Shown piece by piece: positions 976-61,717 of a stretch of 64,000 nucleotides of DNA (the stretch's first letter is position 1; each line of letters begins with the position of its first letter). Source of the DNA: a virus (lineage: Duplodnaviria; Heunggongvirae; Uroviricota; Caudoviricetes). The notes below the pieces were generated by a model, which did not search any database, had not been told where the DNA came from, and worked only from the letters and a program-made list of their open reading frames with translations. The position numbers and the translations under genes were made by a program. The stretch is taken from the IMG/VR virus record IMGVR_UViG_3300037261_000110. The stretch is one strand, 5' to 3'.

Positions 976-3879
976 CTATCTTAGCGGTCTACCGCGAAAA
1001 ATAGCCGTCATGATTGTAGGCTCCTCGAAGCCACGAGCGGCGATCTCCTTTTGAATTTGCTCAAGCCCGCCGATAAGGTTGCGAACTGGCGGTAATCCAA
1101 TATAATTTCGACCAGCCACTATACTTTTCGGTAAGGTACCGTCCTTTGGATTTGGCAAGGTACCTGCCTGAGAATCTGACAAGGTACCTGCTCCCTCAGA
1201 ATCTTTACGGTCCTCAGTCAGCTCTTGAAGCTTCGCCTCAACTTCCTTCCTCGCCTTTTCATTGTAGTTGCGAGAGCCAGCATAGCCGACGCCAGTCAGA
1301 CGCTTAGTACCGTACTTACGCTTCGGACGCGCCCAAGCGAGATATTGCGAAGTCGAGTCGCCCTGATCCTTGTACTTGGTCTCAGGCCAACCAAATATCT
1401 CAGCTTCATATTCTGCTAGCCACCCTGAATTCTCAGGTAGATGGACCAGATGCGCTTCCATCATTGGCGTCACACCATCCATGCGAAACTCTTTCGTAGC
1501 GTTATCAGTTGAGATAGCGATAACTGCACGCGGGCAATGTGGCGAGTTTGGATCGGATTGCTGCTGAATGTACTGAGTACCAGAACCCTTGTCTTCGACG
1601 AGAACACAATCCACATCTCTCAGCTCAGCAAGCTTGTTGAGCTTGTTTGCCATCTCAAAGAACTCCACACGCTTGCGGTAGACCTCGATCAAGTAGTGAT
1701 GGTTATCTTTAGTTTCATCCCAAATCGTTGCAACCGTATAAGCTGCACGCTCGTTGTTCTTGTTGGCAGTGTCGACTGACATAACACGACGCTTCACGTC
1801 TTTGCGCTCAGGACCGATGCGATAGCGTGTACTTGTGAACCATTCACGCTTGATGACGCCACCTTGCTCGTCGATCGGCTTGCCCATATACAAGCTGTTC
1901 CAATCCTTTGCGGATTGCTCAGACTTGATCTGCGCGAGAACATCTTTCGAAAAGAACTCAGGCCAAAGCGGATCACCAAACTGGCGTCCGATTGGATCGG
2001 GAACTGAATCGTCCAAGTAAATTGCCGGCAGGTTAATGATTTCCCAAGGGGCTCCATCGACCATACCTGCCTTGATCATCTTGTTTTCGGCCTCTAGGCG
2101 TCCGCAAAGATCGTCCGAATGCCAGCGCGTCGCCACTATGAACAGTGGAGCTTTGGGAAGCAGACGCGTAAGGTAGTCAGCCTTGAACCAAGCATAGGTT
2201 TTATTGCGGATCGTATCGGATTCCGCATCCTCTCTCGACGCAAATGGATCATCGACGCCAGCAAGATTAGTTCTGAAACCTGCAATTCCTTGTCCGACAC
2301 CACGTGTCAGATAAGCAGAGCCGTTATTTAGCACCCAATATCCGGCGGCGCGCGAAGCTGTGCTTAGCTGTATGTTCGGAAACACTTCAGCATAGCGATC
2401 AGACTCAATTATATCTCTGCACTTCTTACCAAATTCGTTCTCGACGAAGTTCTGGCTGTGTCCGGCTTGAAGATATTTCGTCTTTGGAGCAACACCCATC
2501 TTCCAGGTTGGAAATAAGCGCGAGGCATACGTCGAATTATGGGTTACAATATGTCCACGACCAACAAGAAACAAACCATCTTCGCGTTCGACAGTAATGC
2601 ATTGAGTCGATTGAGTTCCTTCAATCTTCTCGAACGAAATGTAACGTCCGTATTTACCTTCAAACTCAGTTGCACGACAGACCTTGCGCCATAGCTGAAA
2701 CGCACTCTTGAAGTAGAAAGACACGCGCCAATATTCACCGCAGTCTTTTCCGTTCAACATAGCACGTCCAGGGATGATTGAATTCTTCACCCCTAACGAA
2801 AACAGAAGTTCACTCACTGCGTCCCTCAAGCGAGAATTGGTTGAACAAAACGAACACTGTCCTGACGGCGAGACCGTTCCATCACTATCCATCAATCCTT
2901 GTAGAATTGATAAACGCACGTGATAAGAATTTCGAAGATACAGCTCAGGAACATGCTTATTGTTCAAGACACCAAGTGATACCAGATGCTTTCTAATGCC
3001 TAACAAACCAAATGCAGTCTTAGTTGTATGATCAGAAGTATGAACTCCGCACCATTCAATGCGCTCACGTACTTCCGGCTGATCCTTCACATCACATGTT
3101 ATTGTCGGTTGATCGGAATGCCCGTCGCCTAACCAATATCCAAGAACATAAGGATCAAGCGGAATCGTACGAGCCTTATATTCGACTGCTTCAAAATTTG
3201 GAAGTTTTGCACGGCGAGGAGATGTTCGATTGGCAAGATATTCAGTTGGATATGTCTTCCAATAATCACGCTTGCGATCTAATCGAACTGTCCACAAATG
3301 TTCCCCATCAACTAAAACAGCTTGTCCATCATCAGTGTATACACGATAGATTGTACGATTTTCAAACACCGGCGATTTTGCGATTATCTTAGTTGTTGTG
3401 CCGTCTGGTCCGTAAACCTTGTCACCGACTTTCAACTCAGCAATCGTTTTGTAACCGAGCGGAGTTGGAACCTTAGTATCCAGCACCATCGCTTTTGCAT
3501 GTCCTGGTGGCGCCGATATCATTAGACGCGAGTGCATTCCCTGTGACAAATCTGTCAGCTTATTCAGCATGAAGACATGCCAATCAGCCGGTGGTTCATC
3601 CGGAAAAATGTATTCACAATATGCAGTTAGGTCTTTTGGCGCGAGCTGAAGCAGAGCGCTCATGTACTCATTCGAAGTGCTTTCGTAAAGCTCTTCAAGT
3701 GCAATCAGCTGTTGCGCGGGATCGGTAGTACCTGTAAGTTCTATTATGAACTTAGTCTTTGTCGGCGTCAACATCGACTGACGTATCAGTGATGTTTCCA
3801 GCTCCGTCGCCACCATCTTCAGGTTCGTCAGTGACTTCCGTATCTGCTTGCGCGTCTTTTGCGAGATTATTTGCAGCAT
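976..3879 (-). CDS. terL: Terminase large subunit (TerL) interrupted by an in-frame intein. The extein N-terminus may start at the internal Met at 3816 or 3774
   Basis: Motifs: ATRWHSDDLCGRL, DGAPWEIINLP, FIVATRWH. A P-loop-like PPGHAK|S is split by about 319 aa that begin with a Hint block A and end in HN+S. Confidence 0.9.
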   Translation of the reverse strand: MLQIISQKTRKQIRKSLTNLKMVATELETSLIRQSMLTPTKTKFIIELTGTTDPAQQLIALEELYESTSNEYMSALLQLAPKDLTAYCEYIFPDEPPADWHVFMLNKLTDLSQGMHSRLMISAPPGHAKAMVLDTKVPTPLGYKTIAELKVGDKVYGPDGTTTKIIAKSPVFENRTIYRVYTDDGQAVLVDGEHLWTVRLDRKRDYWKTYPTEYLANRTSPRRAKLPNFEAVEYKARTIPLDPYVLGYWLGDGHSDQPTITCDVKDQPEVRERIEWCGVHTSDHTTKTAFGLLGIRKHLVSLGVLNNKHVPELYLRNSYHVRLSILQGLMDSDGTVSPSGQCSFCSTNSRLRDAVSELLFSLGVKNSIIPGRAMLNGKDCGEYWRVSFYFKSAFQLWRKVCRATEFEGKYGRYISFEKIEGTQSTQCITVEREDGLFLVGRGHIVTHNSTYASRLFPTWKMGVAPKTKYLQAGHSQNFVENEFGKKCRDIIESDRYAEVFPNIQLSTASRAAGYWVLNNGSAYLTRGVGQGIAGFRTNLAGVDDPFASREDAESDTIRNKTYAWFKADYLTRLLPKAPLFIVATRWHSDDLCGRLEAENKMIKAGMVDGAPWEIINLPAIYLDDSVPDPIGRQFGDPLWPEFFSKDVLAQIKSEQSAKDWNSLYMGKPIDEQGGVIKREWFTSTRYRIGPERKDVKRRVMSVDTANKNNERAAYTVATIWDETKDNHHYLIEVYRKRVEFFEMANKLNKLAELRDVDCVLVEDKGSGTQYIQQQSDPNSPHCPRAVIAISTDNATKEFRMDGVTPMMEAHLVHLPENSGWLAEYEAEIFGWPETKYKDQGDSTSQYLAWARPKRKYGTKRLTGVGYAGSRNYNEKARKEVEAKLQELTEDRKDSEGAGTLSDSQAGTLPNPKDGTLPKSIVAGRNYIGLPPVRNLIGGLEQIQKEIAARGFEEPTIMTAIFRGRPLR
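2536..3492 (-). mobile_element. Intein with a LAGLIDADG homing endonuclease domain, inserted in the TerL P-loop
   Basis: N-terminal block A-like (A)MVLDTKVPTPLGYKTIAELKVGDKV. Two LAGLIDADG motifs, LGYWLGDGH and LQGLMDSDG. C-terminus GHIVTHN followed by the +1 Ser. Confidence 0.8.
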
Positions 3880-5183: not shown

Positions 5184-5667
5184 ACTTCGTACATGCCATA
5201 CAACAACGTAAAAGTAAAGTAAAAGCACACATAGGGTCATTTTGGTTTGGTTCCCCACACCCTTCCGTGCGGGGCGCGAAAAGCTAAAAGAGCAACGTTC
5301 AAAAAGTAGTGTTTTTTAGCAAAAGCTAAGCTTTCTGCGGATGTGTCATAAAATCCACAACTTTTCGACCTACCACTTTTGGCCCCAAAACCCTTTATTT
5401 CTTTAGATAAGATCAATCAAAAGAATAAAAGAATAGTGGGAACCAGGAACACCAAACCAGTCAGGGTAAAACGCTTCGAAAAAATTTCTGTGCCTGAGCT
5501 GGTACAGTGAGACACCGGCGCAGATATTTGTGCCGGGCATTTTCCCCGCGACTGGTTCCGTGTTCCTCATTTACACTACGGTTTTTGAGCTTTCGTTGTA
5601 ATTCCAAGCCTTTTCACAACAATTTAATTGTTGATATTGACTTAATTGACCGTTTGTGCTGTACAGC

Positions 5668-5721
5668 TTGACAGAAGTCACTATTTGTGCTATCAACCGA
5701 CATCGCACAAATAGTGACTTC
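5668..5721 (+). promoter_or_regulatory. Sigma70-like promoter (TTGACA, 17 nt spacer, TATCAA) overlapped by a perfect 17-bp inverted repeat (GAAGTCACTATTTGTGC ... GCACAAATAGTGACTTC). A GAGGAA ribosome-binding site and the ATG at 5734 follow
   Basis: Seen directly; lies in the divergent intergenic region between the minus-strand packaging genes and the plus-strand early genes. Confidence 0.7.
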
Positions 5722-29953: not shown

Positions 29954-30268
29954 ATGTTAGACAGACCTACTGTCCCTGTCGATCGATTTGTCGACTTCGA
30001 CAACTTCATGCGGCTGTACACTGAAACGAAATCGCCGAAGAATCGGGAGTTCTTGCGGAACCTCTACGACACAGCGCCACATGTTTTTGGCGCAAACGGT
30101 ATCGTCATCTCGGCCGAAGTTGCCAGCGAAATTCGGGCACTGACAACGCGCGAGCATGAGGAGCCGGCGGTGCCGCAGCCAAAGCGGCGGGAGCCAACGA
30201 TTGAGCCCGAGCAACCGAAAGTGATGCAGACGTTCAAGTCTTTCGCAGAGGCTTTCAGCGATAACTAA
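29954..30268 (+). CDS. Hypothetical protein
   Basis: RBS AAGGAA. Confidence 0.4.
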   Translation: MLDRPTVPVDRFVDFDNFMRLYTETKSPKNREFLRNLYDTAPHVFGANGIVISAEVASEIRALTTREHEEPAVPQPKRREPTIEPEQPKVMQTFKSFAEAFSDN

Positions 30269-30290
30269 ACGGCTTCGACGACCAACCCAA

Positions 30291-30329
30291 CGCCGCTAGA
30301 GAGTCAGCTCTCTGGCGGCGTTTATTTTT
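30291..30329 (+). terminator. Rho-independent terminator (13-bp stem, CGCCGCTAGAGAG/CTCTCTGGCGGCG, then TTTATTTTT)
   Basis: Seen directly. Confidence 0.75.
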
Positions 30330-30416
30330 CGCTTGCTATGTTAACCATATTGTGTTAGCGGTTTTTCTCGAAAAAGCGAATGAACTCGAAAATTTTCGTT
30401 TCAAAGGAAAACCAAA

Positions 30417-30962
30417 ATGACCGCAAAGAAAATTTCTGTATCGTCGTCGGCTAACAGGTACGGTGGTCTTCCAGACAAGCTCTGGCAGATGCTGTCTCTC
30501 GCGCTCGACGATTTAGCTGCGGTCGAGAAGATGAAGGATAAGTACGTCGTTCGCATGGACATATGGTACATGCACGGCTATGTCAATGAAGCCGTGCGCG
30601 TGGCTAATCGTCCAGATTCTTTCGAGAAATACGACGACTTCATGGCAAAGCCGACAGAGATTTGCGGAATCTGTTTTGCCGGCGCTGTCATGGCTTGCAC
30701 ACTCGGCGACGGTCCTGATGATCTTCAGCCAGAAGATTTTCCCGAGTTTATCAAGTGCAAGCTTAAGGCTTGTGATATGGCTCGCGGCGGCGGCATGGAA
30801 ACGACGCTCAATACCTTTTACGGTAATTGGGATTGGGACCCGGATTCAAGCAAAACCAGAAAGCTGAAGAATGTTGTCGTGCCAGCGTATGATCGCGATC
30901 GCGCCGGCTTCAAGCGCGGGATTAACACAATGATCAAGCAGTTAAAGGCAGTGGACCTTTAG
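30417..30962 (+). CDS. Hypothetical protein
   Basis: 181-aa ORF. Confidence 0.55.
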   Translation: MTAKKISVSSSANRYGGLPDKLWQMLSLALDDLAAVEKMKDKYVVRMDIWYMHGYVNEAVRVANRPDSFEKYDDFMAKPTEICGICFAGAVMACTLGDGPDDLQPEDFPEFIKCKLKACDMARGGGMETTLNTFYGNWDWDPDSSKTRKLKNVVVPAYDRDRAGFKRGINTMIKQLKAVDL

Positions 30963-30964
30963 TA

Positions 30965-31219
30965 ATGAAGCAGGTATCAACCGAAGGTCCGATCCTTTTC
31001 GCGAAACATACCTTCAAGACGAAAAAAGGCGAGCGCAAAGTCGAGACTCCGGTCTTCGGCATCAATTATCTCGACAACTCACGCTATCCGCGCGGCAAGA
31101 TGAAGCCTTGTATGTATTCGATCCCGCTTCCAGTTGCGACGACTGCGCAGGACATATCCCACATCGCGGCTGCGGTCGCCAAACGTGAGCGCAAAAATGC
31201 CAGACGCGCAGCTCACTGA
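30965..31219 (+). CDS. Hypothetical protein
   Basis: 84-aa ORF. Confidence 0.45.
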   Translation: MKQVSTEGPILFAKHTFKTKKGERKVETPVFGINYLDNSRYPRGKMKPCMYSIPLPVATTAQDISHIAAAVAKRERKNARRAAH

Positions 31220-31448
31220 TGCCGAGCGTCACCGTTTCGTCGATTATCTCCGCCTCGAAGCCGCGAACGAAAAAGAACTTGTCAAGCAACTAGCAAAAGC
31301 GGCCGGTCCTGTGACGACTGGTATTGTGGAATCAGGTGTCCTCAGTGTCATGCCAGAAGCAATTCGGCGCCGCATGATGGAAATCATAGCGATGGAGTTG
31401 GTCGCTAACATGCTCGACGAGACGGAAAGTGTAGTGGTAGAATCATGA
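31197..31448 (+). CDS. Hypothetical protein
   Basis: 83 aa from the internal Met. Confidence 0.4.
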   Translation: MPDAQLTDAERHRFVDYLRLEAANEKELVKQLAKAAGPVTTGIVESGVLSVMPEAIRRRMMEIIAMELVANMLDETESVVVES

Positions 31449-31582
31449 TCGAATTCATCGGTGAAGCTGTAGTCATCGTCATCCTGGTAGTCGGGACGCT
31501 GAAAGCTCTACAGTGGATATCTCACAAACAAACGACTACCTATATCGTCGAAAATGAAAAGGACAAGGACGAACATGCCTAG
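31445..31582 (+). CDS. Small single-pass membrane protein (45 aa) immediately upstream of the SPFH gene
   Basis: ATGA overlap with the upstream stop; TM helix AVVIVILVVGTLKAL. Confidence 0.4.
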   Translation: MIEFIGEAVVIVILVVGTLKALQWISHKQTTTYIVENEKDKDEHA

Positions 31583-32501
31583 ATCAAATTTCGGTGACAG
31601 TGAAAGGGGCACACGCAGCCGTTCTCTTTCATTCGGTGGCATCGGTCTGATCGTTGTCGTCGTGCTCGGACTCATAGTAGCCTGGGATGGCTATTACACG
31701 GTCGATGCCACGCAGGCGGCGATCGTCAAGCAATGGGGCGCCCTTTCTGACGTGACCTTCGAGGGGCTGCATTTCAAGATACCGTTTGCGCAGACCGTGG
31801 AGTATATCGATCTGAAGCAACAGACCGATCTGTACAATCCGGTTGAGGGCTATACAGCTGATCAGCAAATCGCCAATATGTCGGTTGGCGTCCAGTGGCA
31901 CGTCAATCGAGATCGCGCCAGTCTGGAAGCGCTCTATCGGCAATACACTGACGTGCCCGGCGTCAAGGCGAAGCTGATCGACTCAAACCTGCCGACGTTC
32001 CTGAAGAATGTCTTCGGGCAGTACACGGCGGTCAAAGCCATTCAAGATCGTGCCAAGTTGAACTCTGATATCACGACGGCGATCGTCGCCTCTATCGGCA
32101 AAGACTCGCCGATACAGGTAGAGCACGTCAACGTACAAGATATCAAGTACGATCCGACTTATGAACGCGCCATTACAGAGCGCAATCAAGCCGAAGTCGC
32201 GGTTCGTACCAAGGAACAGGACTTGGCGAAGGCCAAGGTCGAAGCCGATATTGCTGTGGCGCAGGCGACAGGTCAAGCAAATTCTGCACGCGCTAAGGCG
32301 GAAGGCGATCGTGATGCCGCTATCGCCGCCGGCAACGGCAAGGCCAGCGCTATCAAGGCAGTCTCTGACGCGCTCACGCAGAATCCGTCCTATCTGGAAC
32401 TATCGAGAATTGAGAAGTGGTCCGGTGGGGTGCCCCAGCAAATGATCCCCGGTGCCACGGTGCCGTTCATCAATCTCGGACAACCGGTCGCGAGCAAGTA
32501 A
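31575..32501 (+). CDS. SPFH/band-7 (HflK/HflC/prohibitin-like) membrane protein
   Basis: N-terminal TM helix, SPFH core (VKQWGALSDVTFEGLHFKIPF...) and a long Ala/Gln-rich coiled coil. Confidence 0.7.
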   Translation: MPRSNFGDSERGTRSRSLSFGGIGLIVVVVLGLIVAWDGYYTVDATQAAIVKQWGALSDVTFEGLHFKIPFAQTVEYIDLKQQTDLYNPVEGYTADQQIANMSVGVQWHVNRDRASLEALYRQYTDVPGVKAKLIDSNLPTFLKNVFGQYTAVKAIQDRAKLNSDITTAIVASIGKDSPIQVEHVNVQDIKYDPTYERAITERNQAEVAVRTKEQDLAKAKVEADIAVAQATGQANSARAKAEGDRDAAIAAGNGKASAIKAVSDALTQNPSYLELSRIEKWSGGVPQQMIPGATVPFINLGQPVASK

Positions 32502-32531
32502 CTTCCTTTCCTTCCCGCGATCGGAAACTAG

Positions 32532-32560
32532 CCGGGGAGTAAAATCCCCGGCTTTTTTGG
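32532..32560 (+). terminator. Rho-independent terminator (GCCGGGGA-gtaaaa-TCCCCGGC, then TTTTTT)
   Basis: Seen directly. Confidence 0.8.
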
Positions 32561-32693
32561 AGCCATACAGTGAAAAAGCGTAAAATCAAATCACCTACAG
32601 CCTTCTTGCGCGCGGTGGAGAAGAGGATGCACCATAATCGCGCCATTTCGTCGAGACAGTTTTACACTAGGAAGGGAGCCAATAGGCACGCAA

Positions 32694-32951
32694 ATGACAA
32701 AAATTCATGACACGCCATACACGTTCGCCGGCATGCCGGTGGTCGTCCACGAAGCCAAGATCGTTACGCGCACCTGGAAGGAACGCCTGTTTTCTCGCCC
32801 CTGGCGTCCGTTTCGAAACTTCAAAATCGTTCCGCCAGCAATCCCGGATGGACAGGTTTTTCGTGTGGTTGACACATGGCATATGACTGTTGTCACCTGG
32901 AATAACCTTATGAGAGAGCTTGAGAGGGTTCCTCGAACCTTGGAAATGTGA
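32694..32951 (+). CDS. Hypothetical protein
   Basis: 85-aa ORF. Confidence 0.45.
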   Translation: MTKIHDTPYTFAGMPVVVHEAKIVTRTWKERLFSRPWRPFRNFKIVPPAIPDGQVFRVVDTWHMTVVTWNNLMRELERVPRTLEM

Positions 32952-33081
32952 ACGAACTCAGGAATCCTGTCATTTCGAGATTATTTTTCGAAAAGCCTTT
33001 ACATCTTGGTTAATAAATGCTATCTAGCCGAAAGTTGACGCGAACACTCGCGCCTTTTGGTAACAATCACAAGGAAAATCC

Positions 33082-33813
33082 ATGCGTCTGACTCCCCAAG
33101 ACATACTCGATTCACCAGAAATCACAGAACCCGCCATTCTCATTTTTAAGAGCGGCGCTGAGATTCTGGTGGATGATTTGTCACCCGTTCAAGATGACGA
33201 GACTGACAACTTCGTTGCCGACGACTTCGGCTATTGTCGCATGGTAGCGATCGATGAAGCAGGTGCTGTCCTGGTTTTTGACAGTGACGCTCTCGAATCG
33301 ATCACATTCAGCCCCAAAGACAGCGCCGCCATCATCGGCGACGAGTATGTCGAGCAGGGCGCTTCAGGTGAAGCAACGCTCGGCTATGCCGATTCGGCGC
33401 CTCCCATGTACGCCGACAACGGTGGCTTCGACGAAGACGAGTACATTGGTCCGGACGCCGATCCCGATGGCTATATCGACGAAGCGGACTTCGCCAATCT
33501 CGTCAAGCTCGGTTTGAGCGACATCGACGATAACGATGGCGAGGGCGAGGAATACGTCGTTGGTGGCTTCCGCGAAGACAACGGAATGCCGTACGCTCTC
33601 ACGGTCACGATGTTTGATCCCTTGACCGGCGAGGAAGTCGAGATGCCGGCGGAGCTTACGGCGGTCCTCGATTCCATGTTCCTCGGCCTCGGCGGCGAGA
33701 ATATCCCCGACAACGGCTTCCTGGACCCGTCAGCGCAAGCTGGTGCCGGCGTCGGCGACCATCATGCTCGCATGTCCGTTGAAGGCGCCGACACATGGCT
33801 GGATCGCTCCTAA
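33082..33813 (+). CDS. Highly acidic (Asp/Glu-rich) protein; candidate DNA mimic
   Basis: 243 aa with very high D/E content throughout. Confidence 0.6.
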   Translation: MRLTPQDILDSPEITEPAILIFKSGAEILVDDLSPVQDDETDNFVADDFGYCRMVAIDEAGAVLVFDSDALESITFSPKDSAAIIGDEYVEQGASGEATLGYADSAPPMYADNGGFDEDEYIGPDADPDGYIDEADFANLVKLGLSDIDDNDGEGEEYVVGGFREDNGMPYALTVTMFDPLTGEEVEMPAELTAVLDSMFLGLGGENIPDNGFLDPSAQAGAGVGDHHARMSVEGADTWLDRS

Positions 33814-34169
33814 TCGATCCCAAACTTCGATCGATCACGACAATCAAAATCATCAACAACGCGGATATCTTCCGCGTTGTTGGCGGTGATTTTGTCTCGA
33901 AGAGGACACCTGACAATAATCTGGTTCACTATCTTGTCGAACCAGATGCGAATGAATGCGGATTTTGCATTCGCGGCATGCACATGCCAGAAGATTTTAT
34001 TTTCAGTATGAGCGTCATTACCGGTTCTCGTCCTTATCAGGATTCTCCTTATTGGAATGCAAATTTCAGTTACTTTAATATTCTCAACAATGTCTTATTT
34101 TTGACAAGAACTGAGAGTAACGAATACATACTAACACAGCCGGAAAAGGTTGTTTGGAGTAGCAAATGA
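33795..34169 (+). CDS. Hypothetical protein with visibly AT-richer codon usage
   Basis: 124-aa ORF. Confidence 0.35.
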   Translation: MAGSLLIDPKLRSITTIKIINNADIFRVVGGDFVSKRTPDNNLVHYLVEPDANECGFCIRGMHMPEDFIFSMSVITGSRPYQDSPYWNANFSYFNILNNVLFLTRTESNEYILTQPEKVVWSSK

Positions 34170-34645
34170 ATGTAGATCGTCTTAGGCGGCTAGCAACCGC
34201 TTTGCGTAGTCGAGAGTTCCCCGAACATGTCGCTTTCAATCTTTGCTATGTGAAGCATGACTTCGCTTCCGGCGATCTGACAGTGGATGCGGACGGAGAT
34301 TTGTACGACACCAGCATGGATGTGAAACTTCACGTCAATGGAAAACAGCCGAAAGGCACTGACTGGTGCGGGACTTGTTGCTGCAATGCCGGCATGACCA
34401 TCATGCTTTTTGAACCGTTGACTTATTGGGACAAGTCACCACGTTTTCCAGCTTACCAGCTGGCGCAGAAGCTCCTCGGGCTTGACGACGACGAAGCGGA
34501 ACAGCTCTTCATTCCTGATCCTCGCTTCTGTCCGCTCGATTGGGAGAAAGTTACGCCGGAGCAATCTGCCGACGTGATTGACAATCTGATCGCGACCGGG
34601 AAGGTTGACTGGTTTGTAATCGCTCCGCTGGCAATGGCGGCATAA
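34166..34645 (+). CDS. Hypothetical protein
   Basis: 159-aa ORF. Confidence 0.5.
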   Translation: MNVDRLRRLATALRSREFPEHVAFNLCYVKHDFASGDLTVDADGDLYDTSMDVKLHVNGKQPKGTDWCGTCCCNAGMTIMLFEPLTYWDKSPRFPAYQLAQKLLGLDDDEAEQLFIPDPRFCPLDWEKVTPEQSADVIDNLIATGKVDWFVIAPLAMAA

Positions 34646-34656
34646 AAGGACGAACC

Positions 34657-34956
34657 ATGGCGATGCGCTTTGTTGACCCGTCCGTCTGGAATGCGGTCAA
34701 AGTTAAGGAAATGACGAAGAAAGAGATTCGTGCTCTGATCAAAGACGCGAAGAGTCTTCAATTCTTTGTTCATCCTGGGTACTGCACCTTTACCGACGAG
34801 ACAGTCTTTCGCGTCGAAGTGAGCAAGGCTTGGGCGAGCGAGTTTGTCACTACTGTCCCGGTTGATGATCTTCCAGGCATTCAGGTGATCGATTACGAGG
34901 GTGAAAAACTAATGCGTTTCTGGCCGAAGGGAACGTTCAACGTCATCTCGGGATGA
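34657..34956 (+). CDS. Hypothetical protein
   Basis: 99-aa ORF. Confidence 0.45.
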   Translation: MAMRFVDPSVWNAVKVKEMTKKEIRALIKDAKSLQFFVHPGYCTFTDETVFRVEVSKAWASEFVTTVPVDDLPGIQVIDYEGEKLMRFWPKGTFNVISG

Positions 34957-35354
34957 ATAATCATCTTGAATATCAGCGAGCTTGGACAAAGAAAAATCTC
35001 GCTCGCGTACGTGCTCAGCAGCGAGCATGGTATCAAAGAAACATAGAGACAGTACGGAAGAAAGCAAAAGAGAAAAACGCTTTACATCCTGAGATAAAGC
35101 GTAACGAAAAACTTCTAACGAGATACGGTATCTCGGCAGAAGAGTGGCAAAAACTCTTCGAGACTCAAGGGTCGTGTTGTGCTATTTGCCGGACGCCCGA
35201 ACCCGGTTCTCAGGATTGGCATACTGATCACGATCATGCGACTAAAGTGGTTAGAGGTATCTTGTGCTTTAATTGCAATATCGGACTTGGAAAGTTCAAA
35301 GAGAGTTCCGATTTGCTATTAGAGGCGGCAGACTATTTGGACAGGTTCAGATGA
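34953..35354 (+). CDS. Endonuclease VII-family (His-Me finger) nuclease, copy 1
   Basis: CCAICRTPEP...DHDHATKVVRGILCFNCNIGLGKF matches the T4 gp49 Endo VII core. Confidence 0.7.
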   Translation: MNNHLEYQRAWTKKNLARVRAQQRAWYQRNIETVRKKAKEKNALHPEIKRNEKLLTRYGISAEEWQKLFETQGSCCAICRTPEPGSQDWHTDHDHATKVVRGILCFNCNIGLGKFKESSDLLLEAADYLDRFR

Positions 35355-35611
35355 TAGCTAATCCGAAGGAAAGGTTCGCTACGAGCTTCATTCTCGTCGT
35401 CGTCACCTTTGTTGTCGTATGCAGCTTCTTCGCAGCGCTTGCGGAGATACGGAAGTCGCCATACGCCGATCTTCATGATTGTTCTGCGGCGGAATTTCTC
35501 AATTTGGAAAAGCCACCGGTGTGGCATTGCACGGATCGATATCAAACCAAAGCAGAAGCTGCGGCTGAACTTCGTTGGGTTCAACGTTATTTCTATGAGG
35601 CCAACAAGTGA
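35351..35611 (+). CDS. Membrane protein
   Basis: ATGA overlap with the upstream stop; TM helix FILVVVTFVVVCSFFAALA. Confidence 0.4.
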   Translation: MIANPKERFATSFILVVVTFVVVCSFFAALAEIRKSPYADLHDCSAAEFLNLEKPPVWHCTDRYQTKAEAAAELRWVQRYFYEANK

Positions 35612-36057
35612 CTTTTCGCTTTCAATCAATGATAAAGCGCGCCGATCTTCGGGAGAACCCCGACGTGATCTACCTCTTCGGCGACAACGACCAGCGCAGC
35701 GGCTACGGCGGGCAGGCAGAGGAGATGCGTGGCGAACCCAATGCTCGTGGCGTCCGCACGAAGAAAGCGCCTAGCAGGCGTCCTGATGCATTCTTCTCCG
35801 ACGCGGAGTTCGAAGAGAACCGCTTGCAGATAGATAATGATCTGTTCGGTTTGTGGGACCACCTAGCAGCGGGCGGCGATGTAGTCTGCCCGATGAATGG
35901 GCTCGGAACCGGCTTGTCAGACCTTGCGGCGACCGCGCCGCGCACTAACAATTTTTTGAGACATCAGCTCGAAAACTTGCACACGCACTTTGGATACGAG
36001 CGTCATCCGGAGCGCCTGGAATCTGCCCGTAAATGCCAACCTAACAGGAGCTACTAA
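35608..36057 (+). CDS. Hypothetical protein, paralogue of 52443..52820; possibly LOG/SLOG-like
   Basis: IYLFGDN ... NARGVRTK ... GGDVVCPMNGLGTGLSDL. Confidence 0.5.
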   Translation: MTFRFQSMIKRADLRENPDVIYLFGDNDQRSGYGGQAEEMRGEPNARGVRTKKAPSRRPDAFFSDAEFEENRLQIDNDLFGLWDHLAAGGDVVCPMNGLGTGLSDLAATAPRTNNFLRHQLENLHTHFGYERHPERLESARKCQPNRSY

Positions 36058-36058
36058 A

Positions 36059-36376
36059 ATGTGGGACTGGTTTCATCAAATCTTCGCCGGTACGCAGACG
36101 CGTGTCGACTTCATCATCGCTGATGCGAAGCGTGTTTCAGATCGTTTCGACACCTTCCAGCAGCAAGCCACTGTCAAGGCTGACTCGCTGGTCGTGAAGA
36201 GCAGCATGCTTACCGACCAACATGCGGCTATGGTCGCTCGCTTGGACGCTGCGCATGCCTCTACGCAGGCAAAGATCGGCAGCTCTGTGGTCGACTTACA
36301 CACTCAGGCTGCGATTGCCGCTACTGCCAAGGCTGCGCTCGCGCCTGTCATCGCGCTCGCGCCGGCAAAAGCATGA
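36059..36376 (+). CDS. Hypothetical protein
   Basis: 105 aa. Confidence 0.45.
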   Translation: MWDWFHQIFAGTQTRVDFIIADAKRVSDRFDTFQQQATVKADSLVVKSSMLTDQHAAMVARLDAAHASTQAKIGSSVVDLHTQAAIAATAKAALAPVIALAPAKA

Positions 36377-36573
36377 CGCTGAATCTCTATGGCTCGTGCC
36401 CTACCTGCGGCGCTCAAGGCGAATATCGCGAGAGGCGCCCAAATGGCAACGATAAGTGCGTCAACGGGCACACCTACCCGTCGTCGAAAGCCATCGGGGC
36501 GCCAAAAAAGCCTAGCCAACCGAATCTTGGCAGGCTTGCTAAGTCTCCATGGTGGAAACGTCAACATACCTGA
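36373..36573 (+). CDS. Zn-ribbon small protein, possibly the N-terminal part of a frameshifted gene
   Basis: CPTCGAQGEY...CVNGH. Confidence 0.4.
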   Translation: MTLNLYGSCPTCGAQGEYRERRPNGNDKCVNGHTYPSSKAIGAPKKPSQPNLGRLAKSPWWKRQHT

Positions 36574-36952
36574 GCTGCGTTTGTCGTCGGGGTTCGCAAA
36601 TGAATCTCGAATTGATTTATGGTCGATAGACCCGTCACCGGCAACCGGCAATGTCGCGACGGCTTACGAAATAAAGATCAGCCGTGACGATTGGAAAAGG
36701 GACAATGCGATCAAGCAGCGCGGGGCTCGACTGTTTGCCGATCGCTTCTACTATGTGACGCCGCCGGGCTTGCTGAAGCCGGAAGAGATTCCGGATTGGG
36801 CAGGACTGATCGAAGTTGATCCAGACGAGAAAGACGCCTGGGATAATTTGGTTCGGTGCAAAACAATTGTCACCGCGCCAAAGTTGGACAAAGCACACCC
36901 GACTTGGGGTTTGGTCGTTTCCATGCTCCGTCGTGTGCCAATGGAAGTGTAA
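36443..36952 (+). CDS. Putative PD-(D/E)XK-type nuclease domain protein; possibly joined to 36373..36573 by a frameshift
   Basis: IDLWSID ... AYEIKISRDDWKRD. Confidence 0.4.
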   Translation: MATISASTGTPTRRRKPSGRQKSLANRILAGLLSLHGGNVNIPELRLSSGFANESRIDLWSIDPSPATGNVATAYEIKISRDDWKRDNAIKQRGARLFADRFYYVTPPGLLKPEEIPDWAGLIEVDPDEKDAWDNLVRCKTIVTAPKLDKAHPTWGLVVSMLRRVPMEV

Positions 36953-36957
36953 AGCAA

Positions 36958-37185
36958 ATGTTGTGGATGATGCTTGTCTTGTTCGTAGGCTCTTCGACGG
37001 TTGTTCCGTATGAAGTGCCATTCAGGTACAACAGTTATCAGGATTGTGCTGACGCAGCTTTGTGGATTAGTGGGCAGGCAGTCCGTTACATTGGTGAAAT
37101 CTACTGCGTTCCAGATCATCCGGCGAAGTTTCCGCAAGACATGAAACCATTGAAACCATATCAGTATCAGTATGTCCCTCGTTGA
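36958..37185 (+). CDS. Small secreted protein (signal peptide)
   Basis: MLWMMLVLFVGSSTVVP. Confidence 0.45.
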   Translation: MLWMMLVLFVGSSTVVPYEVPFRYNSYQDCADAALWISGQAVRYIGEIYCVPDHPAKFPQDMKPLKPYQYQYVPR

Positions 37186-38317: not shown

Positions 38318-39319
38318 ATGAGCTGGTACGTTTTTGATCTTGATGGCACGTTAGCCGACAACGCACATCGGCAAAATCTGCTTCCAGATAATTGGGATGC
38401 TTTCTTTGAGGCGTGCGATAAAGACACGCCGATTTGGCCTGTCCTCGATCTGATGACGAACCTATGGTCGGACGGACACCGTATCGAAATTTGGTCAGGT
38501 CGTGCCGCTGCGGTACGTGACAAGACCGTTCGTTGGTTCGAGGATCAGTGTGGCATCTTTCTCGACTTGTCCAAGATCGTGTTGCGCATGCGCATGGAGA
38601 GCGACTATCGTCCGGACGAAATCATAAAGGCTGAGTGGTTGGCGGAGTCACCTGCAAAACCAGATATCATTTTTGACGATCGCCAAAAAGTCGTTGACAT
38701 GTGGAGAAAATCTGGTGTCGTCTGCGCCCAGGTCGCGCCCGGCGATTATGACATGAAGATTCGTCCGTCGAGCAGTGTCGCGACCGGCGAGGATCACATC
38801 CTGGTCCTCATGATCGGACCTTCCGGAACCGGTAAGTCCAGCTGGATCAAGCATGGTATGGAGATTTGGGAAAAGAATGATCCCGACGACTATGATCCTA
38901 CCTGTGTGATTTCGACCGATTTCATCCGCGCAAATCTGACGAACGATTATAAGAATCAGAAGCGCAATGGGGATGTTTTCAAGGCGGTCGAAGCCTTGGT
39001 TCGAACGCGCATGAGCTGCGGACTGCGCACGATCGTGGACGCCACTCACCTGGACCCGGCATGGCGCAAAAAACTTGTCTCGCTTGTTCCGCCGGGCATG
39101 AAGGTGATGTATTGTGTTGTCAACGCAAGCCTCGCCGTCAAGCTCGCGCACGCAAACGGACGCGAACCAGATGTGATCATAAGCCAGCATCATACCTTCA
39201 ATCACCAACTTTCGGACATTCTCGCGGGCGATGGCTTGCCCAATGTGATCGTCCAGGCAGATATTCACAATGATGACGGCTCCTCAATCATTATCGATCC
39301 CTACGAGAATGATCAGTGA
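38318..39319 (+). CDS. pnk: Polynucleotide kinase/phosphatase with an N-terminal HAD phosphatase and a C-terminal P-loop kinase
   Basis: HAD motif VFDLDGTLADN and Walker A GPSGTGKSS. Confidence 0.75.
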   Translation: MSWYVFDLDGTLADNAHRQNLLPDNWDAFFEACDKDTPIWPVLDLMTNLWSDGHRIEIWSGRAAAVRDKTVRWFEDQCGIFLDLSKIVLRMRMESDYRPDEIIKAEWLAESPAKPDIIFDDRQKVVDMWRKSGVVCAQVAPGDYDMKIRPSSSVATGEDHILVLMIGPSGTGKSSWIKHGMEIWEKNDPDDYDPTCVISTDFIRANLTNDYKNQKRNGDVFKAVEALVRTRMSCGLRTIVDATHLDPAWRKKLVSLVPPGMKVMYCVVNASLAVKLAHANGREPDVIISQHHTFNHQLSDILAGDGLPNVIVQADIHNDDGSSIIIDPYENDQ

Positions 39320-39783
39320 CTGAAACAACCGTAAAGCGTCGTGAGTACATACAGAAATGGCGGCGCGAACATAAAGAGCATATACTAGAAGTCCAGCGAA
39401 GATGGCGTGAAAGTCCAGGAGTTCGCGAACGAATCCGTGCTTCAGGGCGAAGAAGTCATGAAAAGTATCGAGATGAAAGAAATAAACGTCAGCACGCTCG
39501 TCGACAGCATCCAGATTACAATCAGATGTTTGAACAACAAAATGGATTATGTGCTATTTGTAAGAAACCTGAAACAAGCATAGATAGTCGCTCTGGTAAG
39601 CCCAAACAGCTGGCTCTTGATCATGACCATATCACAGGAAAAATCCGTGGCTTGCTCTGTCAGAAGCATAATATAGGCTTAGGTTGTTTTGACGATGATC
39701 CTGTGCTTATGGAAGACGCCGCCAGCTACGTTCAAGAGCATCGTGATCTACAACGATTCGAGAGTATGCTAAATGTCACCTGA
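39316..39783 (+). CDS. Endonuclease VII-family nuclease, copy 2
   Basis: CAICKKPE...LDHDHITGKIRGLLCQKHNIGLGCF; AT-richer than neighbours. Confidence 0.7.
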   Translation: MTETTVKRREYIQKWRREHKEHILEVQRRWRESPGVRERIRASGRRSHEKYRDERNKRQHARRQHPDYNQMFEQQNGLCAICKKPETSIDSRSGKPKQLALDHDHITGKIRGLLCQKHNIGLGCFDDDPVLMEDAASYVQEHRDLQRFESMLNVT

Positions 39784-48248: not shown

Positions 48249-48413
48249 AATTTGTGGCCTTTCCGGCTTTTTGGATAATGCTCGCATTAACCTAAATTGT
48301 CAATCGAAAAATAATGTGAACGAACTCGGGAATTTTTGGCGGTGTACGATCTCGCTTGACAAATCGAAGAAATTGTAGCATGAATCTGGCGAAAGATAGG
48401 AAAACAGGTAGAG

Positions 48414-50678
48414 ATGAAAATAGAGACCGCCGAGAGAGTAGCCGAGTTTGCTGGTTTTCTTGAAGAGAAAAGCTTCACGATAGCAGCAAACGGTAAAGCT
48501 TTTCGGGTCCTCATTGATAAACTTTACTCAAACGTTCATCAAGCTATTGTACGCGAGCTGATGACGAATGCTTGGGATGCGCATGTTTCGGCGGCAAATC
48601 TAAAACCTTTCGAAATTCACGTGCCGACAGCGTTTGAGCCCTTCTTTTCTATTCGTGACTTCGGCTGTGCAATGACTCACTCAGAAGTCATGAACGTCTA
48701 CTCGACGATATTCGAGTCAACCAAGGATGCTCGTGACGATCAGGTCGGCGCCTGGGGCCTTGGCTCAAAAACACCTTTCGCCTACACTGACACTTTTGGC
48801 GTGCAAGTCTGGCTAGATGACCGCCATAGGGTGTATAATGTCTTCATAGATGCGACCGGTGTCCCAAAAATCGCCCTGGCGCTCGACGAAGAGAATGACG
48901 GTGCCGCGAACGGCGTTGAGGTATCCTTTCCAGTCGGTGTCAAAGATGCCGGTCTTTTTCGAACCGCGCTCGAAGTGGTTAGCATTGGCTTCGAAGTCAA
49001 GCCAAAATTTTCTGGTTCGCTCAATGTTCTGGAATTAGAGAAGCGTCGTCAAGGTGCTGGCTGGTTCACGTTCGTCTATTCCAGTGGACCAACATGGTTG
49101 AAAAAGCCGGTTGCTCGGGTCGGCTGCGTCCTCTATCCGATCAAGCTGGACGTGGTGTGTGATCTCATAAGAGACAAAGCGACGAAGCCAGAGTGCTGGC
49201 AGCTTTTGTCCAGCGTGCATGGTTTTCCGGGCACGCCAATGATCCTCGATTTCCCAATTAGCTCGATCGAAGTCACAGCCAATCGTGAAGACTTATACTA
49301 TTCGGAACGAACTGTCAAGTCTATTGTTGATAGATTCGAGACAATCGTTCAGGAAATGAAAGCTGAGTTTTTAGCTAATATCAAGAAAGGCAAGACTCTC
49401 TATGAAGTGAATATGGAAGTCCTCGAAGTCTGCGAGATGTTCGCCGACGTTGCCTCTGGCGTCTCTAGCTATCTCCGTGATTTTGCTCGGCAACAGAGCT
49501 TCAAAGGACGAAAGCTTCTTCACAAAATCGTTTTTCGACATAGATACAAAACGGTTGAGGAAAAGAACGCTGCCGGTGAGGCAGTCATTTATCGAGTTCC
49601 GACTCGTTACAATAGCATTCAATTCGTCTACTATCTAGGCTCGAAATTCATTCGTCAACCAGGACTGCAATTCTGTGATTCTGAGGAAATGTCTTGGACT
49701 CCGCGTGTTACCGACTTCTTCGTTGAGCTGCCGGGCGAAAAGGGTAAGCGCGTGCCGTACGCTGCTCGCCGCATTCGTCACGAGCGCAACGAAGCCGGCA
49801 CGACCGTGCGCCACGATCTTATGTGGATCAAGACACCCTCACTCTCGGACCCTCACTTCGTAAAAATGTGGATCGGGCTCGGGCGCCCGCCTTATAAACT
49901 GGTCAACGATCTGGTGAGACCGCCGGGCATTCCGACCGAGCGCTATATAACCCCGATGCGCATTTATAATTCGAATGCAGATACGTGGGAAAGGTATGAC
50001 GATTTCGACGTTGAGAATGACGCCGGGTTTTATGTGATGCTCAACTGCGGGCTTCCGGAGCATATAAAGAGCGTGAAGCTCTGCGATCTGATCGGATTTC
50101 TGGAATCAAAGCGCGCGATCCACAATGCCCGTCATATCATTGGCATCCCAAAGAGCCGCAAGTCAGTTCTCTCAAAATCCGATCAATGGATTGACATGGT
50201 TCCCGTCCTTAAAGCAGCCTACCGCAAAGCGCTCAACGTGAAGCAGGCAGCGGTCAGTTTCAGTGTTAAAGAGATCACAATCGACAAAGGGGATCAAGGC
50301 ACGTTAGAAAGATTGAACCGCAAGCTTGGTAGGTTTGATCCGGCGTCGCCGTTCGTTCAAGCGATTAAAGCCTATGATCGGTTGGGAGCGATTGAGGCGA
50401 CAGCTGCCGAATTTAAGAGTGCCTGGAATCATCGATGGGTGCTTGATTATGAGGAGCGTGCGAAGCTCGACGAAGAATACAACGCGCTCGCCAAAAGTGA
50501 CCCGGCGCTGGTTTCTGAGATTGGCTCTATCAAGTCTGCCATCGAAGGTGTTTTTCAAGCCTATCCTTTACTGCAAAAAGTGCCATATCCCGATCAAGAT
50601 GCTTTGAAAGCACTCGACGACTATATTGTAGCGATGGACTGTTTTAGAGGGGCGCTTGCTAGTGGCTTACAAAAATAA
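48414..50678 (+). CDS. rIIA: rIIA-like protein (GHKL ATPase-domain protein)
   Basis: FRVLIDKLYSNVHQAIVRELMTNAWDAH matches the T4 rIIA N-terminus (VVRELITNMIDAH); also GAWGLGSKTPF. Confidence 0.8.
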   Translation: MKIETAERVAEFAGFLEEKSFTIAANGKAFRVLIDKLYSNVHQAIVRELMTNAWDAHVSAANLKPFEIHVPTAFEPFFSIRDFGCAMTHSEVMNVYSTIFESTKDARDDQVGAWGLGSKTPFAYTDTFGVQVWLDDRHRVYNVFIDATGVPKIALALDEENDGAANGVEVSFPVGVKDAGLFRTALEVVSIGFEVKPKFSGSLNVLELEKRRQGAGWFTFVYSSGPTWLKKPVARVGCVLYPIKLDVVCDLIRDKATKPECWQLLSSVHGFPGTPMILDFPISSIEVTANREDLYYSERTVKSIVDRFETIVQEMKAEFLANIKKGKTLYEVNMEVLEVCEMFADVASGVSSYLRDFARQQSFKGRKLLHKIVFRHRYKTVEEKNAAGEAVIYRVPTRYNSIQFVYYLGSKFIRQPGLQFCDSEEMSWTPRVTDFFVELPGEKGKRVPYAARRIRHERNEAGTTVRHDLMWIKTPSLSDPHFVKMWIGLGRPPYKLVNDLVRPPGIPTERYITPMRIYNSNADTWERYDDFDVENDAGFYVMLNCGLPEHIKSVKLCDLIGFLESKRAIHNARHIIGIPKSRKSVLSKSDQWIDMVPVLKAAYRKALNVKQAAVSFSVKEITIDKGDQGTLERLNRKLGRFDPASPFVQAIKAYDRLGAIEATAAEFKSAWNHRWVLDYEERAKLDEEYNALAKSDPALVSEIGSIKSAIEGVFQAYPLLQKVPYPDQDALKALDDYIVAMDCFRGALASGLQK

Positions 50679-51147
50679 AGATGATGACAAAAAATGGAGA
50701 GAAGCTAACGAGGATCATCTAAAGCAATATAAAAGAGACTACTACAGACGGAAGTATGGAAAAAATCGTGAAAAAATGTGTCCTAAACCTAAAAGACGCA
50801 CAGATCACTTGAAGAGATACGGTATCACTATAAATGAGTGGGAGAAGATGTTTGAAAAACAGGGTAAAATATGTGCTCTGTGTGGATCAGATGTCCCTGC
50901 CAAACACTCAAATCGATGGAATACGGATCATGATCACGATACAGGGATAATTAGAGGAATTATTTGTTGCAGTTGTAACAATGGATTAGGTCTATTCAAG
51001 GATGATCCAGTGCTACTGCGCAAGGCCGCCAACTATATAGAACTAAGCAAACCTCTTAATTTTTTACTTGACAATCGGAAAAAACCCGAGCATTATGCCG
51101 AAACTCAAACCATAGAGACGGACAGCAATGAGCACGATCCCGCATAG
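50656..51147 (+). CDS. Endonuclease VII-family nuclease, copy 3, inserted between rIIA and rIIB
   Basis: CALCGSD...TDHDHDTGIIRGIICCSCNNGLGLF; AT-rich codon usage. Confidence 0.75.
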   Translation: MLVAYKNKDDDKKWREANEDHLKQYKRDYYRRKYGKNREKMCPKPKRRTDHLKRYGITINEWEKMFEKQGKICALCGSDVPAKHSNRWNTDHDHDTGIIRGIICCSCNNGLGLFKDDPVLLRKAANYIELSKPLNFLLDNRKKPEHYAETQTIETDSNEHDPA

Positions 51148-52442: not shown

Positions 52443-52820
52443 ATGCCGGTAATTTACAAACGTTCAATCACTGTCAAGGACCTGAATGACAATCCGGATA
52501 CGCTGTTTTTATTCTGCGAGAATGCGGAATATTCCGGCGACGATGAAGGACTCGCTAAATTCAGAGGCGAAGAAAACGCCGTTGGCATTCGCTTAAAGTA
52601 CCGTTCAGGGAATAAGCGCTCCGCTCACATCTCTTGCGAGTCTAGCTTCGAAGGGTTCGCCTTCTTAGACGAAGATTTAGAGCCCGTCTTAGAGCACGCC
52701 AAAGCTGGCGGCACTGTTGTCATCCCGTCTCATGGTTTCGTTCCCTCGCGTCTCTGCGAGGACGTGAAGGCGTATCTGCTTGAGAAGTTAGAGGAGATGG
52801 AAGACGATGGTGACGAATAA
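52443..52820 (+). CDS. Hypothetical protein, paralogue of 35608..36057
   Basis: Shared blocks LFLFCEN ... NAVGIRLK ... GGTVVIPSHG. Confidence 0.5.
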   Translation: MPVIYKRSITVKDLNDNPDTLFLFCENAEYSGDDEGLAKFRGEENAVGIRLKYRSGNKRSAHISCESSFEGFAFLDEDLEPVLEHAKAGGTVVIPSHGFVPSRLCEDVKAYLLEKLEEMEDDGDE

Positions 52821-55447: not shown

Positions 55448-55525
55448 AAAAATTTGCTAAAAACTTGACTCTTTCCGTTAACCGTGCTACGTAGAGAAAT
55501 CATTTTCTACGGAAGCAGCTTTTCC

Positions 55526-61045: not shown

Positions 61046-61717
61046 GTGCTTGACAGATTAACCACGATGTGCTACGACAGACAAATAATGCCGATCACGA
61101 TTTACGTCATTGAGAACGGTGTCAATGACAAGAAATATGTAGGGCAGACTTGCGGACCTGTTGATAACAGGTTCCGACAGCATTGCACTAAAAATGGCTG
61201 CACAGCCATCTATCGAGCTATCACAAAGCACGGTAGAGAACAATTTTCGATCCGTACGCTTTTCGTCTGTCCAGACGATCAAGCGTATGCAGACGAGATG
61301 GAGTGTTGCGCGATCAAGGTATTCGGAACGACGGTCCCGAATGGTTACAATCTTCAAGAAGGTGGATCGAATGGAAAGCACTCCATAAAGACAAAGGAGA
61401 AAATGTCAGCTACCGCAATGGGACATGAGGTTTCAATTGAAACGAGAGCAAAATTAGCATCTGCTAATATTGGAAATAAACATGCTCTTGGATTCAAGCC
61501 ATCAACTGAAACTAGAGCTAAAATGGCGGCAGCTCAGAGAGGTAATAAAAATCAACTTGGACTAAAACGATCGCCAGAGACTTTGATAAAGATGGCAGCA
61601 GCTCAACGAGACAAGAAGTGTTCAGCTGCCACAGCCGCTAAAATATCAGCATCACTGGTTAACTACCACAAAAACAAGAAAAAGAAGACAACAAACGATG
61701 CGCGTACTTACATTTGA
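61046..61717 (+). CDS. GIY-YIG homing endonuclease with NUMOD3 repeats
   Basis: IYVIENGVNDKKYVGQT and three repeats of SxETRAKMAAAQRGNK. Confidence 0.8.
   Translation: MLDRLTTMCYDRQIMPITIYVIENGVNDKKYVGQTCGPVDNRFRQHCTKNGCTAIYRAITKHGREQFSIRTLFVCPDDQAYADEMECCAIKVFGTTVPNGYNLQEGGSNGKHSIKTKEKMSATAMGHEVSIETRAKLASANIGNKHALGFKPSTETRAKMAAAQRGNKNQLGLKRSPETLIKMAAAQRDKKCSAATAAKISASLVNYHKNKKKKTTNDARTYI

Follow-up and report, generated by a model that had tools for sequence, protein, structure and literature searches.

The question raised by this locus is what a phage does with a protein in which nearly one residue in four is Asp or Glu, and in particular whether such a protein imitates DNA. The gene lies in a 64,000-nt stretch of phage DNA, all of which was analyzed and which we call the window, and the original prediction regarded its product as a candidate DNA-mimic anti-restriction or anti-defense factor:

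33082-33813, plus strand: coding sequence of the polyacidic protein, ATG start, 243 aa, net charge -49

The protein contains 35 Asp and 22 Glu (23.5%), with 3 Lys and 5 Arg (3.3%), giving a pI of ~4.05. Among the ~110 non-overlapping ORFs of the window, which have a mean Asp + Glu content of 10.9% (SD 4.5%), it ranks first for acidity, and its net charge is also the most negative, the runner-up (-31) being a protein of 939 aa. The very high Asp/Glu content was said to extend along the whole length, and the composition by zone bears this out, with 14 to 29% Asp + Glu throughout (aa 1-77, 23%; 78-98, 24%; 99-170, 29%; 171-215, 20%; 216-243, 14%); the acidic peptides quoted in support are likewise found in the 243-aa sequence. 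The window's next most acidic protein (Asp + Glu, 21.6%) is the second of two DUF7831 paralogues, encoded at 35608-36057 and 52443-52820 (both plus strand).

The ORF is a genuine, conserved phage gene. At least 22 metagenomic contigs, drawn from several samples, encode an identical protein, and related uncultured phage contigs have four divergent homologues at the matching syntenic place. Residues identical to those of the window protein are specified by different codons at 30 of 56 positions in contig L007 and at 30 of 43 in contig L009; since this is more than half of the identical residues in both comparisons, it points to purifying selection on the protein. The gene contains no tandem DNA repeat, and the window holds no paralogue of its product. 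An internal duplication of the acidic tail was considered and rejected, as 405 of 500 shuffled sequences reach the same score.

To place the protein among known families, we searched 1.84 billion representative proteins exhaustively with HMMER, which returned only five members: P0001 (the window protein), P0002, P0005, P0006, and P0007. Two further matches, P0008 and P0009, were discarded as spurious, low-scoring artifacts of repeats or composition (P0008 is a leucine-rich-repeat protein matched through "GEELIIP"-type repeats), and a word-indexed protein search found nothing beyond the exhaustive one. None of the five members has a match with Ocr homology at E ≤ 1 in Pfam, PHROG, or NCBIfam. 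The family profile retrieves no PDB sequence at E ≤ 0.01; against PHROG, the window protein has no match at E ≤ 0.01, and the other members match only at E ≥ 0.1. In a collection of 50,697 phage genomes, tblastn with the acidic protein gave no match at E ≤ 1 and megablast with positions 30000-37000 gave none. IMG/VR scans with the family alignment, the neighboring SPFH protein, P0005, and P0007 yielded no relatives, nor did a JGI metagenome scan with a three-sequence alignment; as a query, the SPFH neighbor reached only unrelated jumbo and rhizobial phages, without synteny. This is a five-member orphan family, whose composition is suggestive and not diagnostic. The window protein belongs to no known DNA-mimic family, and it has no link to the known anti-restriction DNA mimics: all that it has in common with Ocr, ArdA, and Arn is composition. 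Acidity itself is preserved across the five members (Asp + Glu 19.6-23.5%, Lys + Arg 3-6%, net charge -19 to -49), although the sequence of the tail is not, which is typical of regions that act through their composition.

The five-sequence alignment and the structure predictions divide the protein into a conserved N-terminal domain and a long tail, the latter comprising a variable acidic stretch and a second conserved module:

33082-33312, plus strand: N-terminal domain (aa 1-77), acidic; predicted helix followed by a small five-stranded beta-barrel, Sm/SH3-like
33376-33591, plus strand: central hyper-acidic segment (aa 99-170), 29% Asp + Glu with 2 basic residues; predicted disordered
33592-33726, plus strand: C-terminal module (aa 171-215), comprising DPxTGxExE(M/L)P, an amphipathic helix, LGLGG, and F213-L214-D215

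Conservation of the N-terminal sequence reaches approximately aa 98, with T15, A18, F22, G25, D31, R53, A56, G61, V63, F66, D67, and D80 invariant in all five sequences. AlphaFold2 run on two sequences gave a mean pLDDT of 34.8. With five sequences, aa 1-80 reached 61-78 (means of 10-residue blocks) and formed a helix at residues 5-9 followed by five strands; aa 78-243 stayed below 50 except at aa 184-193, with weak helices at 134-148 and 190-202. The charge-hydropathy relation agrees with this division, placing the N-terminal domain on the folded side of the boundary and the tail on the disordered side. The predicted N-terminal domain has the helix and five strongly bent antiparallel strands of Sm/LSm/Hfq-like barrels, and its best Foldseek matches, all nonsignificant, are YgdR, the LSm domain of Edc3/Scd6, and Hfq. 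A Foldseek search of the BFVD viral structures returned only noise, and neither Ocr, ArdA, Arn, Ugi nor any other mimic occurs among the structure matches. We assign the domain, with moderate confidence and at the level of predicted fold, with no claim of homology, to small beta-barrels of Sm/SH3-like topology. The same predictions suggest that the ~165-residue tail is intrinsically disordered in vivo.

Within the tail, the least conserved part of the protein is also its most acidic segment. This aromatic-rich stretch varies from ~15 to ~75 aa among the homologues and is nearly absent from P0002; between the window protein and P0005, both of which carry the long form, it aligns weakly (9 of 500 shuffles reach the score). 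Acidic-aromatic motifs (DDF, DEDEY, DPDGY, DEADF, and EGEEY) recur in the tail. The C-terminal module, on the other hand, is 55% identical to P0002 over aa 171-214, and its FLD tripeptide ("SFLD" in the homologues) is invariant in all five members, lying at or near the C terminus and essentially terminal in two. We also compared the C-terminal motifs with sliding-clamp (QLxLF-like), FtsZ C-terminal-peptide (PxFLR-like), and SSB-tip patterns; the resemblance is too loose to support mimicry of these peptides. One further short motif stands in the acidic segment:

33454-33489, plus strand: DADPDGYIDEAD(F), aa 125-137, regular-expression match to the PROSITE PS00018 EF-hand (DxDxDG calcium-loop) pattern

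A PS00018 match such as that of the loop DADPDGYIDEADF arises in 0.8% of composition-preserving shuffles, and the loop is followed by the weakly predicted helix at 134-148. It is missing from all four homologues, and Pfam EF-hand gives no match; judged by sequence pattern, the loop is probably a chance or lineage-specific feature.

The source phage of the window is uncultured and ~150 kb in size, the longest contig with the acidic protein measuring 152,899 nt. The best matches of the window's rIIA, at 31-41% identity, come from Ruegeria phages RpAliso and DSS3P8, Rhodobacter phage RcXuper, and Sphingobium phage Lacusarx, which are large siphoviruses of Alphaproteobacteria, and the host of the window phage is probably alphaproteobacterial too. 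On the plus strand, the genes follow one another in the order YunG-like, YAcAr, SPFH/Band_7, 85-aa, acidic, 124-aa, 159-aa, 99-aa, Endonuclease VII, DUF7831, and PNKP. The run of small genes that includes the acidic gene precedes those for primase, rIIA, SNF2 helicase, and DNA polymerase A; no structural or assembly gene is found near it, and the terminase gene is ~30 kb away. Compared with L007, the neighbors of the acidic gene are collinear at ~60-78% identity, and its own N-terminal domain is 57% identical, which makes the gene part of the conserved backbone of the lineage and not of an obviously variable accessory island.

Several features of the surrounding genes deserve separate mention. 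An 85-aa protein (32694-32951, plus strand) is encoded directly 5' of the acidic gene in all relatives, at 51-65% identity; it carries a net charge of about +5, counted by eye, and has no family match. Further upstream, the gene for a 45-aa hydrophobic peptide (31445-31582, plus strand) overlaps the start of the SPFH/Band_7 gene (31554-32501, plus strand). This pair is kept in relatives, and the unit ends at a strong terminator (32530-32553), of which an equivalent stem sequence is seen in L007. Genes with an Endonuclease VII domain occur three times in the window (34953-35354, 39316-39783, and 50656-51147, all plus strand) and have short DNA repeats in common, D1 in the first and third and D11 in the second and third, with another copy of D1 at 63157; L007 lacks the first of these genes at the corresponding position, a pattern that suggests mobile, homing-type endonucleases. 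Beside the terminase gene, short direct repeats are clustered at 82-166, 187-238, 565-624, and 709-811 (for example TTAACCTTACCnnGnnTGGTTAACG, three times) and may mark a packaging or replication-origin region. The large terminase ORF itself (976-3879, minus strand) is unusually long at 967 aa; a PHROG profile of 760 positions spans its residues 8-868, implying ~150 inserted residues, possibly an intein or an inserted domain. Neither Rfam families nor tRNAs were found in the window.

The region around the acidic gene contains four candidate expression signals:

32945-32965, plus strand: 21-mer AATGTGAACGAACTCAGGAAT, overlapping the stop codon of the 85-aa ORF; possible regulator-binding site
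32997-33025, plus strand: promoter-like element CTTTAC-N17-CTATCT with a TGn extended -10, in the 130-nt spacer; putative function
33071-33075, plus strand: Shine-Dalgarno sequence AAGGA, read off the sequence, 6 nt 5' of the ATG
33849-33887, plus strand: 17-bp hairpin with a T-rich tail, ~35 nt beyond the acidic gene's stop codon, early in the ORF that follows

When the upstream regions of the window, L007, L008, and L009 are aligned, the only invariant blocks are CTTTACA and GTGnTA, and L007 has AAGGAA as the equivalent of the Shine-Dalgarno sequence. The "good promoter" first described upstream of the gene is thus backed by conservation of the element upstream of homologues, though a generic sigma-70 scanner did not list it. 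Elements of the same class (CTTGAC or CTTTAC, ~15 nt, and TGCTAY as an extended -10) occur at 356-384, 5667-5695, 32997-33025, 55464-55492, and 61049-61077, all on the plus strand; the rhizobial sigma-70 consensus is CTTGAC-N17-CTATAT. The host RNA polymerase probably transcribes the acidic gene, which may be expressed early.

A "conserved 21-mer" had also been placed 5' of the gene. The repeat is present and nonrandom: a second copy (48313-48333, plus strand, one mismatch) lies ~80 nt upstream of rIIA, against a chance expectation of 0, and both copies fit the form AATGTGAACGAACTC(A/G)GGAAT. "Conserved" nevertheless overstates the case, because the two window copies are the only ones and the sequence is absent from the related loci L007-L010. 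The intergenic regions of the acidic gene and rIIA have nothing in common except this 21-mer, which may be a common regulator-binding site for the two genes.

Downstream, the hairpin lies within the 124-aa ORF at 33795-34169 and is scored as terminator-like. Counterparts are present at about 8533-8572 in L007 and about 5057-5095 in L009, and RNAalifold on the three sequences gives 17 pairs, three of them with compensatory changes. The structure may be an attenuator, a terminator, or an RNase/processing site that delimits or regulates the transcript.

With the gene, its architecture, and its setting defined, we considered what the protein might do. We tentatively favor, at a probability of roughly 40%, a polyanionic decoy that is disordered and held in place by a domain for specific docking. 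The classical anti-restriction reading, in which a larger variant of the dsDNA mimics plugs the groove where type I R-M or BREX methyltransferases take up DNA, draws on an acid/base composition comparable to that of Ocr (29% acidic, 5% basic) and an ArdA-like pI of ~4, and on the promoter and possible downstream hairpin, which would make the gene a discrete transcription unit. The protein, however, resembles Ocr, ArdA, and Arn in neither sequence nor fold; two thirds of it is predicted to be disordered, so no fixed phosphate-like lattice of carboxylates is expected; its most acidic part is unconserved; and the gene is neither at a known genome end nor in a variable island. The disorder, the unconserved acidic segment, and the conserved collinear block together weaken an Ocr-type mechanism, which we regard as improbable. 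Structure prediction had been proposed as a check on the mimic hypothesis; its outcome speaks against a rigid, folded dsDNA-mimic architecture and is still compatible with a disordered nucleic-acid mimic. It had further been proposed that the hypothesis would fall if the protein were disordered filler that gives no protection. Disorder is indeed predicted for two thirds of the chain, but the acidity kept throughout the family argues against mere filler.

A different arrangement places the function in the beta-barrel and the C-terminal helix-LGLGG-FLD module, which would act as an adaptor for a hub protein of the host (for example, the sliding clamp), for a protease adaptor, or for another phage protein, with the acidic region as a soluble entropic linker and no mimicry at all. 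The pattern of conservation is what this model would require: aa 1-98 and 171-215 are the conserved parts, FLD is invariant, and the intervening linker ranges from ~15 to ~75 aa in length and is nearly gone in P0002. The LSm-type barrels Edc3/Scd6, which are among the Foldseek matches, are protein-protein modules, and collinear conservation with the neighboring genes suggests a core function in the lineage. Yet the barrel (23% Asp + Glu) and the C-terminal module (20%) are strongly acidic as well, and all parts of each homologue are poor in basic residues, which a neutral spacer would not need; we consider an adaptor of this kind somewhat unlikely. A further possibility is an acidic chaperone that neutralizes or escorts a basic partner, or a Ca2+/Mg2+ binder acting through Asp-rich loops. 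The 85-aa protein, conserved directly upstream in all relatives, would be one example of a client for such a chaperone, but it is only weakly basic, a promoter-like element separates the two genes, and structural or assembly genes are not nearby. For cation binding, the match of aa 125-137 to the EF-hand/DxDxDG pattern, found in only 0.8% of shuffles, is offset by its absence from all four homologues (0 of 4) and by the lack of a Pfam EF-hand match. We consider either form of this explanation improbable.

In the favored decoy mechanism, the flexible tail, rich in Asp/Glu and Tyr/Phe, would bind to the cationic surface that a DNA- or RNA-binding protein of the host (or phage) uses to contact nucleic acid, and would compete with nucleic acid for that surface. 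Specific docking would come from the conserved barrel together with the FLD module. The mode of action would be that of the disordered mimic in SPO1 Gp44, by analogy and not by homology, as opposed to that of the rigid dsDNA mimics Ocr and ArdA. Candidate targets include a restriction or BREX enzyme, RecBCD/AddAB, RNA polymerase, Rho, and HU-type nucleoid proteins. This proposal is consistent with the extreme acidity of all five members, the predicted disorder of the tail, and the recurrence of its acidic-aromatic motifs; with the gene's own conserved promoter-like element and Shine-Dalgarno sequence and its position among small nonstructural genes upstream of the replication module; and with the precedents of Gp44, CarS, Rof, and Hfq. 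Against it stand the lack of homology to any characterized mimic in the family, PDB, phage-genome, and Gp44 comparisons, an acid density that peaks at 29% over 72 aa, far short of the 57% in the mimic domain of Gp44, the dispensability of the most mimic-like segment in the homologue P0002, and the fact that the gene belongs to a conserved, collinear run of genes as opposed to a variable anti-defense island.

A more elaborate version is rather improbable. The Sm-like acidic barrel could assemble into an Hfq/LSm-type ring that displays six or seven polyanionic tails, with FLD as a latch, and so form a multivalent nucleic-acid decoy. If it did, the ring could saturate an oligomeric DNA/RNA-binding machine such as Rho, a type I R-M/BREX complex, or RecBCD, and would constitute a previously undescribed class of phage counter-defense or host-takeover factor. 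The decoy mechanism in general, if true, would provide a second, unrelated phage case of a disordered polyacidic region carried on a small docking domain, after SPO1 Gp44, the docking domain here being an Sm/SH3-like barrel, and it would widen the search rules for anti-defense and host-takeover proteins past compact folded mimics.

Comparison with the established DNA mimics shows how far the resemblance extends. Ocr (T7 gp0.3) has 34 acidic residues among 116, or 29% (PMC3439906), and 6 basic residues (~5%), and ArdA proteins have pI values of 3.8-4.05. The acidic protein has a similar acid/base composition (23.5%/3.3% overall and 29%/3% in aa 99-170) and a pI of ~4.05, within the ArdA range. 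Ocr and ArdA fold into compact dimers on which the carboxylates overlay the phosphates of B-DNA, whereas the acidic protein is predicted to be a beta-barrel with a disordered tail, unlike the compact all-helical Ocr dimer, whose surface carboxylates mimic bent B-DNA. Ocr inhibits type I R-M or BREX, and its gene is expressed first on entry; the acidic gene shows a conserved promoter-like element. Neither homology to ArdA nor its three-domain elongated fold, with helical ribbons of negative charge, is seen: the acidic protein has no Pfam or PDB profile match, and ArdA is absent from its structure matches. The PHROG search at E ≤ 0.01 and the tblastn search of the phage collection at E ≤ 1 likewise show no homology to T4 Arn. 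The features of phage scaffolding or prohead core proteins are not present either, as the gene lies outside the head-assembly module and the prediction is not helical.

Other barrel proteins were compared as well. The acidic protein shows no YKHAI, the Sm2 motif of Hfq; it shares 8-15% sequence identity with Hfq and Rof/YaeO and has no match to Pfam Hfq, LSM, or ROF, and the net charge of -17 on its barrel makes Hfq-like RNA binding unlikely. In Hfq, an Sm core is joined to an acidic disordered tail that has been termed a nucleic-acid mimic (PMC5606850), and the Sm-like protein Rof obstructs the RNA-binding site of Rho (PMC11018626). CarS, an antirepressor of Myxococcus, is an acidic five-stranded SH3-like barrel that mimics operator DNA and sequesters a DNA-recognition helix through its acidic mimicking surface (PMC2926617); the predicted N-terminal domain is likewise a small five-stranded SH3-like barrel of acidic character.

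The nearest counterpart in overall organization is Gp44 of the Bacillus phage SPO1, a 237-aa host-takeover inhibitor of RNA polymerase with a folded region at residues 1-55, a disordered ssDNA-mimic domain at 56-122 that is 57% Asp/Glu, and a coil C terminus (PMC8208478). Its size also removes one argument of the original prediction, namely, that 243 aa would be unusually large for a phage DNA mimic, since Gp44 is about as long. The two proteins have no sequence similarity (best BLASTP E = 0.28), and their N-terminal domains differ, that of Gp44 being a basic Xis-like DNA-binding motif and that of the acidic protein a predicted beta-barrel of net charge -17. The acidic regions differ in density and in kind: that of Gp44 is Glu/Val-rich, whereas that of the acidic protein, predicted to be disordered and with only 2 basic residues in 72, reaches at most 29% Asp + Glu and is rich in Asp, Gly, Tyr, and Phe. 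Both are nonstructural phage products, each restricted to a narrow phage lineage, and of nearly equal size, and the three-part plan of Gp44 is predicted for the acidic protein too: a small N-terminal fold, then a polyacidic stretch that is disordered and poor in basic residues, then an unstructured C-terminal region.
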